Assembly: GCF_041886205.1 (NCBI RefSeq)
Contig: NZ_CP169029.1
Origin: Escherichia coli
GTDB lineage: Bacteria; Pseudomonadota; Gammaproteobacteria; Enterobacterales; Enterobacteriaceae
Strand: one strand, 5' to 3'
DNA: 64,000 bases
The notes beneath the pieces are model-generated. The model was not told the origin of the DNA and did no database searches. It saw only the letters and a list, made by a program, of their open reading frames with translations. Within the stretch, counting starts at the first letter, position 1. Each line of letters opens with the position of its first letter. Shown piece by piece: positions 19,468 through 20,461 of this stretch. The translations under genes and the position numbers were made by a program.

Positions 19468-19479
19468 GTATCCGGCATT

Positions 19480-19790
19480 GGTGCACAACTGCCGGATGCG
19501 GCGTGAACGCCTTATCCGTCCTACTGTTCAGGCACGATTCGTAGGCCGGATAAGCGCAAGCGCATCCGGCACCAGCGCACAACCGCCGGATGCGGCGTAA
19601 GCGCCTTATCCGGCCTACCGATCCAGCACAGGTTTGTAGGCATGATAAGACGCGTCAGCGTCGCATCAGGCATCTGCGCATAACCGCCGGATGCGGCGTA
19701 AACGCCTTATCCGGCCTACCGATCCGGCACAGGTTTGTAGGCATGATAAGACGCGCCAGCGTCGCATCAGGCATCTGCGCATAATTATAA
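19480..19790. repeat. REP/BIME cluster with a tandem ~80-bp duplication, flanking rayT
   Basis: Multiple copies of GCCGGATGCGGCGTAAACGCCTTATCCGGCCTAC-type palindromic units; the unit CAGGTTTGTAGGCATGATAAGACGCG...CCTTATCCGGCCTACCGATCC occurs twice in tandem. Confidence 0.85.
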
Positions 19791-20282
19791 AATGATACGC
19801 TCGCCAGCATTTATATCCGTTACGTCCCCCGCCCAATCGATGGGATATAACCCTCGCGCGACATCGCGATGGAACGTTGAGAATGGCCAATCACTCACTT
19901 GCTTTACCCAACCATGCTTTACTGGATTTATATAAATATAATCAACATGATGCCTATAATCTTTGGTATTGCGGATGGCGTGCTCCCAAAAACGTGGTTG
20001 CCAGATATTTTTCAATCCACAAGCATGGGTAAATTGCTTTTTAATTTCCCGCCAGCGCGAGGAAAAATCATCATCGCCTTCAGGTAATGTCCAGATACAG
20101 TGCATATGCTCTGGCAAAACGACCCAGGCGTTGATTTCAAAAGGCCTGTCTCGCTTAACTTTAATAATGGCGTGACGGAGCATCTGGTACTGGGTGGTCA
20201 AGAGTTGGCTTCGACGATTGCGTAAATTCACCGTGAAAAACCAGGTTCCCCCCTTGATGTAATAACGACGATATTCAGACAT
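19785..20282 (-). CDS. rayT: REP-associated tyrosine transposase (RayT/TnpA-REP)
   Basis: 165 aa MSEYRRYYIKGGTWFFTVNLRNRR...; IS200/IS605-like HUH fold (...HMHCIW...); flanked on both sides by REP elements. Confidence 0.85.
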   Translation of the reverse strand: MSEYRRYYIKGGTWFFTVNLRNRRSQLLTTQYQMLRHAIIKVKRDRPFEINAWVVLPEHMHCIWTLPEGDDDFSSRWREIKKQFTHACGLKNIWQPRFWEHAIRNTKDYRHHVDYIYINPVKHGWVKQVSDWPFSTFHRDVARGLYPIDWAGDVTDINAGERIIL

Positions 20283-20372
20283 GGCGACTCCTTTTTCTCA
20301 ACGGTAAGAAGAAAAGGAAAGGTCGGTAATGAGGTGATGGAATAACAGGAAAGCGGCTCGCAAAAACGCACA

Positions 20373-20461
20373 GATTTGTAGGCATGATAAGACGCGTCAG
20401 CGTCGCATCAGGCATCCGTGCACAACCGCCGGATGCGGCGTAAACGCCTTATCCGGCCTAC
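20373..20461. repeat. REP element(s) on the other side of rayT
   Basis: CAGATTTGTAGGCATGATAAGACGCGTCAGCGTCGCATCAGGCATC...GCCGGATGCGGCGTAAACGCCTTATCCGGCCTAC. Confidence 0.8.

Follow-up and report, generated by a model that had tools for sequence, protein, structure and literature searches.

The 64,000-nucleotide stretch of Escherichia coli DNA analysed here (contig NZ_CP169029.1; hereafter the window) contains rayT (also called tnpA_REP or yafM), the gene of a REP-associated tyrosine transposase (RAYT), together with the REPs (repetitive extragenic palindromic sequences) around it. We conclude, with a probability of about 0.95, that the locus is the E. coli REPtron, that is, a single-copy, vertically inherited, domesticated transposase gene of the HUH/Y1 type that occupies a fixed site inside a y/z2 array of bacterial interspersed mosaic elements (BIMEs) of class BIME-2. 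The same locus was named REPtron by Ton-Hoang et al. in 2012 (PMC3333891); both the locus and its variation among strains are already known from that work, and our sample, which is some fifty times larger, adds nothing categorically new. The locus is a textbook example of transposase domestication, the gene sitting among its cognate repeats, and it matters little beyond its correct annotation. It does carry a caution: REP copy number at the rayT site is not a clock of recent RayT activity, although an earlier reading of the sequence (the original prediction) had proposed to use it as one.

Identity of the rayT product

The gene is an open reading frame (ORF) of 165 codons:

19785..20282, minus strand: rayT (tnpA_REP, yafM), 165-aa HUH/Y1 REP-associated tyrosine transposase (4ER8, NF047646, active-site residues, RefSeq)

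Its product is identical at 163 of 165 residues (E 6.7e-117, aligned residues 1-164) to TnpArep of E. coli MG1655 in PDB entry 4ER8, the structure solved by Messing et al. in 2012 (PMC3479197). The sole mismatches fall at residues 157-158, which are IN in the window and FS in 4ER8. The protein belongs to the NCBIfam family of REP-associated tyrosine transposases (NF047646: 179 bits, cutoff 80), and RefSeq labels the identical locus rayT. Using the residue roles and positions given in the crystal-structure paper (PMC3479197), we find that all of the published active-site residues are kept (H59-M60-H61, Y115, N119, H123, and E161), as is K82, which contacts the bulge of the REP stem.

The 99%-identical K-12 protein binds single-stranded REP through the 5' GTAG and the bulge in the stem, and cleaves between C and T (C/T, the slash marking the cleaved bond) either in a linker or in a neighbouring inverted REP (TGCC/TGAT in z2, GGCC/TAC in y). 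Its reaction passes through a 5'-phosphotyrosine intermediate, and strands can be joined again (PMC3333891, PMC3479197, PMC8266576). Binding to REP plus GTAG, C/T cleavage, and strand exchange were observed in vitro with the K-12 protein only, and models of amplification were proposed (PMC3333891).

Arrangement of the REPs

REPs were mapped across the whole 64 kb with blastn-short, using consensus sequences for y, z1, and z2, and then with exact patterns and a GTAG-plus-fold scan. Eleven were found: six on the 3' side of rayT (19490-19773), two on its 5' side (20378-20461), and three at 23050-23184. Neither blastn-short nor the GTAG-plus-fold scan found any other REP in the window. The REPs and the repeats that they build are as follows (mismatches are to the consensus; strand is that on which the REP reads GTAG-first):

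19483..19781, no strand: BIME-2-type tandem array on the rayT 3' side, six alternating REPs, period 101 bp (Tandem Repeats Finder, repeat search)
19490..19524, minus strand: R1, y REP, GTAG-first on the minus strand, foot GTAGGACGG; fold -9.0 kcal/mol, z -3.44
19541..19571, plus strand: R2, short y-like REP of 31 nt, within the 94-bp extra BIME; fold -9.8 kcal/mol, z -3.73
19585..19618, minus strand: R3, y REP; fold -13.2 kcal/mol, z -3.57
19636..19672, plus strand: R4, z2 REP; 0 mismatches; fold -9.7 kcal/mol, z -4.69
19686..19719, minus strand: R5, y REP, tail-to-tail with R4; 0 mismatches; fold -12.2 kcal/mol, z -3.74
19737..19773, plus strand: R6, z2 REP, 11 nt from the rayT stop codon; 1 mismatch; fold -9.7 kcal/mol, z -3.30
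19727..19784, plus strand: left copy of the 58-nt direct repeat bracketing rayT (repeat search, local alignment)
20368..20425, plus strand: right copy of the 58-nt direct repeat bracketing rayT (repeat search, local alignment)
20378..20414, plus strand: R7, z2 REP, 95 nt upstream of the rayT start codon; 0 mismatches; z -4.69
20428..20461, minus strand: R8, y REP whose GTAG holds the yafL stop codon; R7 and R8 form the single 5' BIME; 0 mismatches; z -3.74
23050..23083, minus strand: R9, degenerate y REP, yafJ-gmhA intergenic; 3 mismatches; z -0.08
23101..23137, plus strand: R10, z2 REP with a mutated upper stem, yafJ-gmhA intergenic; 1 mismatch; z -1.60
23150..23184, minus strand: R11, y REP, 7 nt from the gmhA stop codon; 0 mismatches; z -4.28

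The REP oligonucleotide in the co-crystal with TnpA_REP has the same foot as R1, GTAGGACGG (PMC3479197). The y consensus (at most three mismatches) is matched six times and the z2 consensus four times, against an expectation of 0.00 for each from 100 shuffles. On the plus strand all of the y REPs show their CTAC end and all of the z2 REPs read GTAG-first; REP orientation therefore alternates strictly. The linkers measure 17 nt between head-to-head REPs and 13-14 nt between tail-to-tail REPs. Alternation of y and z2 with short linkers, in a tandem multi-copy array whose copy number varies among strains, places the repeats in BIME-2. R1-R8, with their 5' GTAG and bulged stem, are the flanking cognate REPs expected around a RAYT gene of group 2, and the C/T motifs cleaved by RayT in z2 and y can be read in the units of the window. 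The original prediction had placed REPs on both sides of rayT and a similar module near 23050-23195, and the map bears out both statements: R1-R6 and R7-R8 flank the gene with 163 of 165 residues in common with 4ER8, and three REPs stand at 23050-23184.

Tandem Repeats Finder reports a single array at 19483-19781 (period 101, 3.0 copies, 86% matches, score 419). Within it, the repeat search aligns 19561-19661 with 19662-19762 at 93% identity and the first copy at just 60%, so that the array consists of two 93%-identical y+z2 units and a diverged third. A tandem duplication had been predicted, with a length of about 80 bp; the duplication is real, but the head-to-tail unit is y+z2 including the 17-nt linker and the period is 101 bp. 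The shorter length is that of the 85-nt composite quoted in the original prediction (z2, 14-nt linker, y), which is the z2-linker-y doublet. This composite is complete at 19635-19719, 20377-20461, and 23100-23184, has a diverged version at 19540-19618, and is represented at 19736-19773 by its z2 half alone. On either side of rayT stands one copy of a 58-nt direct repeat made of z2 and linkers (19727-19784 and 20368-20425, 91% identical).

Hairpin potential

Each REP was folded as single-stranded DNA in the GTAG-first orientation. The expectation that the units form REP-like hairpins holds for nine of the eleven, which leave the four GTAG bases unpaired at the foot and then form a stem with a 2x2 internal loop (-9 to -13.2 kcal/mol, z -3.3 to -4.7). 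Tail-to-tail doublets give one long hairpin each, of the REPIN kind (REP doublets forming hairpins), at -24.3 to -31.2 kcal/mol (z -4.3 to -7.1). Individual values are -31.2 kcal/mol (z -7.08) for R2-R3, -24.3 kcal/mol (z -4.33) for R4-R5 at 19634-19721, and -24.7 kcal/mol (z -4.41) for R7-R8. A head-to-head pair gives two separate hairpins and not one.

Several observations count against reading the locus as a REPtron. At the third site, the hairpin potential of R9 (z -0.08) and R10 (z -1.6) has decayed. Pfam at default thresholds returns no match for RayT, and a relaxed search finds Y1_Tnp (PF01797) at 15.7 bits, below its cutoff of 23; the link of RayT to IS200/IS605 accordingly rests on the crystal structure and NCBIfam, and not on Pfam. 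I157 and N158 set the window protein apart from the K-12 protein that was assayed, and they lie in the C-terminal tail, three to four residues before the metal ligand E161. Finally, a scan of 19300-20700 found neither a sigma-70-like promoter nor an intrinsic terminator.

Comparison with known systems

The closest relative is the REPtron of K-12 MG1655, which has the same gene (163/165 aa) at the same yafL-lfhA/fhiA site, just one BIME (z2+y) 5' of it, and, 3' of it, an alternation of y with z2 REPs in which the outermost y REP is footed GTAGGACGG. It differs in having four 3' REPs where the window has six, the extra 94 bp being an atypical BIME in which a y-like REP of 31 nt accompanies a y REP, in having F and S where the window protein has I157 and N158, and in having dinJ-yafQ beyond yafL, which is missing from the window. 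The repeats share with BIME-2 elements (Bachellier/Gilson classes, PMC3333891) the alternating y and z2, the short linkers, the tandem arrangement, the conservation of copies within a locus, and a number that varies among strains. Unlike them, the first unit of the window (R1-R2-R3) is atypical, with a short y-like REP in the place of z2, and the array is split by a protein-coding gene that has a z2 REP on either side.

REPIN-RAYT systems (Bertels & Rainey 2011, PMC3116915; group 2 RAYTs, PMC5581495) likewise have a single-copy RAYT flanked by cognate doublets, and the tail-to-tail doublets of the window (about 85 nt) form long hairpins as REPINs do. The E. coli doublets pair y with z2 and are bulged, whereas the group 3 REPs of Pseudomonas are short perfect palindromes. 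With the IS200/IS605 elements (IS608, ISDra2) the locus shares the HUH motif and single catalytic tyrosine, the recognition of hairpins of single-stranded DNA that bear a 5' tetranucleotide, and the bracketing by hairpins on one strand. It differs from them in that the rayT unit is single-copy, is not mobile as a whole, and is below the IS200 thresholds of Pfam and NCBIfam (transpos_IS200, NF033573: 13.4 bits, cutoff 55). RayT also differs in being a monomer whose C-terminal tail contacts GTAG and whose cleavage specificity (C/T) is loose. Lastly, four z2/y doublets resemble naRNA4/REP325 to the extent of exceeding the gathering score of that family; they lie 3' of yafL, rayT, and gmhA rather than at yjdM-yjdN.

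REP number and alleles among strains

Ton-Hoang et al. (PMC3333891) found tnpA_REP at the unique yafL/fhiA site in 74 of 110 strains, with a single 5' BIME that does not vary and a 3' array that does. They described precise loss of the gene with retention of the BIMEs in B2 strains such as CFT073, and hicA/hicB in its place in B1 strains. We searched 5,426 complete E. coli genomes and retrieved 14 loci for REP mapping (12 with rayT), and all four of these features (invariant 5' BIME, variable 3' array, hicAB replacement, and rayT deletion) were seen again. Of the 5426 genomes, 3574 (66%) have the gene; the median copy number is one and the maximum two. We note that nine of the rayT matches are on plasmid-labelled records and that some genomes have the gene in two places, which is unexpected for a strictly single-copy chromosomal gene. 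In all 12 of the rayT-positive loci the gene adjoins yafL; the other neighbour is lfhA/flhA in 11, and in the remaining one (L014) insertion sequences (ISs) take that place.

Copy number does differ among strains, as the original prediction had expected a comparison to show. The 3' (lfhA-rayT) site holds two REPs in O157:H7, four in K-12, 2021CK-01361, S7, 50EVAW, and NCTC 13148, six in the window, wlxctx60, and EC36, at least eight in strain 2A, and 11 in A32. The 5' (rayT-yafL) site holds two in every rayT-positive locus (12/12). The yafJ-gmhA site has three REPs in most loci, one in O157:H7, and none in LR-62-2. In the arrays of B2 type (A32, positions 3065-3617 of locus L008; also L006), most of the amplified z2 units begin with GTCG and not with GTAG; their y partners retain GTAG on the other strand, and the GTCG units therefore do not exclude an action of RayT. 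The O157:H7 strain F8952, which has the shortest 3' array and the single yafJ-gmhA REP, has a rayT annotated as a pseudogene owing to an internal stop (L007, 3813-4310).

The alleles without rayT are of three types. In one, hicA-hicB replaces rayT and all of the REPs (L010, 3669-4456). In another, that of LR-62-2 (L011), there is neither rayT nor any REP; this empty allele has a different palindrome, of the CCCTC...GAGGG type, at both the lfhA-yafL and yafJ-gmhA sites (L011, 3669-3765 and 6900-7014). In the third, found in C25, CFT073, and Nissle, rayT is deleted and six REPs are kept (L012, 3669-3950). The CFT073-type array is identical in all 60 of the best-matching genomes listed, a ranking that favours identical matches and so is uninformative about variants. 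The deletion allele has exactly one z2 between a left-type linker and a right-type linker followed by a y REP; upstream z2 variants resemble the right-hand copy of the 58-nt repeat, which blurs the crossover point of the deletion.

Insertion sequences are found in the arrays of two strains. Strain 2A has IS1397 in the y REPs on either side of rayT (L009, 1854-3202 and 4328-5676), and in strain MS20675 the array's left part has been replaced by an ISEc31 that is itself split by a group II intron (L014, 1-3292). These insertions mark REP arrays as insertion targets.

Age and origin of the array-length variation

Array length was taken as the gap between the two REP-free halves of a query (200 nt from the lfhA 3' end and 200 nt from the rayT 3' end) in 38 evenly spaced genomes. 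The gaps fall into classes of 109 bp (n=1), 142 bp (n=4), 213-221 bp (n=25), 309-317 bp (n=6), and 407 bp (n=2). Each class of flank identity that has several rows shows one span only (100%, 715 bp, 4 rows; 96.8%, 621 bp, 13 rows; 94.2%, 617 bp, 6 rows; 94.4%, 542 bp, 4 rows). Array length thus tracks the flanking haplotype, which points to a polymorphism that is old and fixed by lineage.

Compared with the closest four-REP allele (L003), the window has a 94-bp insertion made up of R2, a 14-nt linker, R3, and a copy of the linker. The R2 segment is found in 344 of the 5426 genomes, once in each and always at 99% identity or more; genomes with a rayT at least 99% identical to that of the window number exactly 344. 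A search of E. coli genomes for a donor of the 94-bp BIME at another place found none, each of these 344 genomes having it in one place, so that transposition from another locus could not be supported. The endpoints of the indel lie in homologous linker (tgttcaggcac and cgatccagcac). Read from the sequence of both strands, the junction between the window and four-REP alleles has no RayT C/T signature within its five-position ambiguity. Published modelling puts REPIN duplication at about 1e-8 per host generation (10.1101/2021.07.10.451892).

We infer that copy number at the rayT site reflects old, lineage-fixed events and not recent RayT activity; the claim that it records such activity is unsupported, since array length follows the flank haplotype, the extra BIME occurs once per genome, and the junction has no C/T. 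The 3' array would have grown and shrunk in y+z2 steps of about 100 bp, with the addition of one atypical 94-bp BIME in the lineage of the window, and these changes would be rare and ancient and by now fixed in their lineages. Their agent may have been RayT or host recombination between the 101-bp repeats. Array length and the R2 segment might serve as a cheap lineage marker.

Position in 3' regions and matches to naRNA4

All three REP sites are in the 3' regions of minus-strand genes. The stop codon of yafL (TAG) is formed by the last three bases of the GTAG of R8 (20458-20461), and that of gmhA is 7 nt from R11 (23185-23194). According to the mobilome preprint (10.1101/2024.07.17.603846), regulation of translation by REPs requires a distance of at most 15 nt from the upstream gene, and both distances are inside that limit. 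Placement in 3' regions, together with the proximity to stop codons, makes a regulatory role of these REP sites plausible. In NCTC 13148 (L004), a full-length flhA-like gene likewise ends in the GTAG of a z2 REP.

The Rfam family naRNA4 (RF02564, naRNA4/CssrE) has four matches on the minus strand, which score 63.5-79.5 bits where the gathering score is 59.5:

19544-19615, minus strand: naRNA4 match, R2-R3, 63.5 bits
19639-19716, minus strand: naRNA4 match, R4-R5, 76 bits
20381-20458, minus strand: naRNA4 match, R7-R8, 79.5 bits
23104-23181, minus strand: naRNA4 match, R10-R11, 76.3 bits

As the naRNA4 model is essentially a y/z2 BIME unit (from REP325), the matches identify the repeat and are no evidence for a small RNA gene. 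A 2026 preprint (10.64898/2026.03.23.713779) describes REP325 as a 3'-UTR (untranslated region) terminator-stabiliser and not as a nucleoid organiser.

Alternative explanations

Tandem repeats of about 100 bp are prone to mis-assembly, and the type VI secretion system (T6SS) island of the window has many broken ORFs, so the duplication might have been an artefact, as the original prediction had allowed. Independent assemblies rule this out: the same 1,701 bp is found unchanged in strain wlxctx60, 309 records are at least 99% identical over those 1,701 bp, and the diagnostic R2 segment is in 344 complete genomes, which puts the allele in some 300-340 independent complete genomes. The window is, moreover, 99.955% identical to the independent genome of wlxctx60 over the 22.5 kb that span the locus. 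An ordinary autonomous IS of the IS200/IS605 family, moving whole, is suggested by a Y1/HUH gene between two hairpins of the same direction (R6 and R7, both GTAG-first on the plus strand) and by the weak Y1_Tnp match, but is effectively refuted. The unit is not multi-copy (median one copy), its locus is fixed, with yafL as neighbour in every retrieved locus, both the Pfam Y1_Tnp and the NCBIfam transpos_IS200 models stay below threshold, and Corneloup et al. in 2021 reported no evidence of tnpA_REP mobility and a mechanism of dissemination still unknown (PMC8266576). It is possible, if we would not put it higher than that, that the BIMEs are maintained by a role in RNA and not by mobility, as partial Rho-dependent terminators or mRNA stabilisers in 3'-UTRs or as naRNA4-like RNAs, with yafL, rayT, and gmhA as the targets. 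The four tail-to-tail doublets match naRNA4 on the minus strand, which is the transcribed strand of these three genes; the yafL stop is inside R8 and the gmhA stop next to R11; REP325 acts as a terminator-stabiliser in yjdMN (10.64898/2026.03.23.713779); and no independent promoter of rayT was found in 19300-20700. Against this, a match to what is in effect a y/z2 BIME-2 unit says nothing about expression, and REP325/naRNA4 does not compact the nucleoid (10.64898/2026.03.23.713779). Such a role would in any case complement the identification of the locus as a REPtron and not compete with it.

The variation in copy number itself can be attributed to ongoing RayT cleavage and rolling-circle-like amplification, in which case strain differences would mark recent RayT activity. 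The 3' site does vary (2-11 REPs), BIMEs are cut and recombined by K-12 TnpA_REP in vitro, for which models of amplification exist (PMC3333891), and E. coli without a RAYT hold fewer REPINs (mean 143 vs about 200; 10.1101/2021.07.10.451892). We nevertheless consider this unlikely. Array length is constant within each flank-haplotype class of the even sample of 38 genomes, the 94-bp BIME is at least 99% identical in all 344 carriers with a second copy in none, and the 5' BIME is invariant despite having the same REPs. The CFT073/Nissle allele still has six REPs without any rayT (in the 60 best-listed genomes, where the ranking favours identical matches), and the window/four-REP junction lacks C/T within its five ambiguous positions. 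The published duplication rate (about 1e-8 per generation; 10.1101/2021.07.10.451892) is low, and mobilome sequencing detected no circular REP DNA (10.1101/2024.07.17.603846). To RayT-independent host processes we would give an even chance. On this account replication slippage, unequal crossing-over, or gene conversion of diverged alleles acted on the 101-bp repeats, and rayT was lost from the lineage of CFT073 in the same way, through the 58-nt direct z2 repeats. Homologous deletion or duplication has adequate substrates in the 93%-identical 101-bp units and the 91%-identical 58-nt bracket, the deletion allele holds one z2 between a left-type linker and a right-type linker with its y REP, and the 94-bp indel ends within homologous linkers. 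The amplified units of B2 type (A32), in which z2 has GTCG in place of the GTAG that RayT requires, also favour host processes, but the y REP of each such unit keeps GTAG on the other strand. Host processes leave the contrast between a variable 3' and an invariant 5' side unexplained, though a single doublet has no tandem partner.

A more speculative proposal is that RayT acts preferentially in cis and thereby produces the 5'/3' asymmetry, that the 3' array is a slow nursery of BIME variants before they spread, and that rayT expression is gated by read-through of the yafL BIME. It is compatible with the invariant 5' BIME, the 3' array of 2-11 REPs, an R2 that has no copy elsewhere, and the failure to find a rayT promoter; the lineage-fixed array lengths and the junction without C/T lend it no positive support, and we regard it as very improbable. 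Were it true, the 3' array would be the place where new BIME variants arise before spreading.

Neighbouring genes and the wider window

The REPtron of the window lies between lfhA/fhiA, an FHIPEP remnant (17695-19467, plus strand), and yafL, which encodes an NlpC/P60 protein (20458-21216, minus strand); beyond yafL are yafK/dpaA, yafJ, gmhA, and fadE. The lfhA/fhiA gene is truncated at the N-terminus (its Pfam match begins at profile position 99), is a pseudogene in RefSeq, and overlaps lafU; it is the scar of the Flag-2 deletion. A full flhA-like gene, upstream of which are fliR and flhB, is retained in S7, A32, and NCTC 13148. In K-12 (L001) a toxin-antitoxin pair, dinJ-yafQ, separates yafL from dpaA; it is missing from the window at 21217-21507, and in wlxctx60 yafP directly follows dinB, so that yafN-yafO is missing as well.

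About 34 kb of the window (27919-61811), beside tRNA-Asp (61817-61893), is missing from wlxctx60, which holds a 6.6-kb remnant. This island encodes T6SS proteins (FHA, VasE/TssK, ClpV-like, VasJ/TssA, and IcmF/TssM) in ORFs that look fragmented: the ClpV-like ORF has 446 aa, IcmF is spread over at least two ORFs, and only six ORFs of at least 180 aa are found in 27.9-44.8 kb. Either the island is decaying or the sequence contains frameshift errors. At the other end of the window, an ORF with SMEK_N and CTD10 domains (4225-5205, minus strand; ABC-three-component system) lies beside tRNA-Thr(CGT) (5459-5534), and the divergence from wlxctx60 upstream of this tRNA gene suggests a variable island at thrW.

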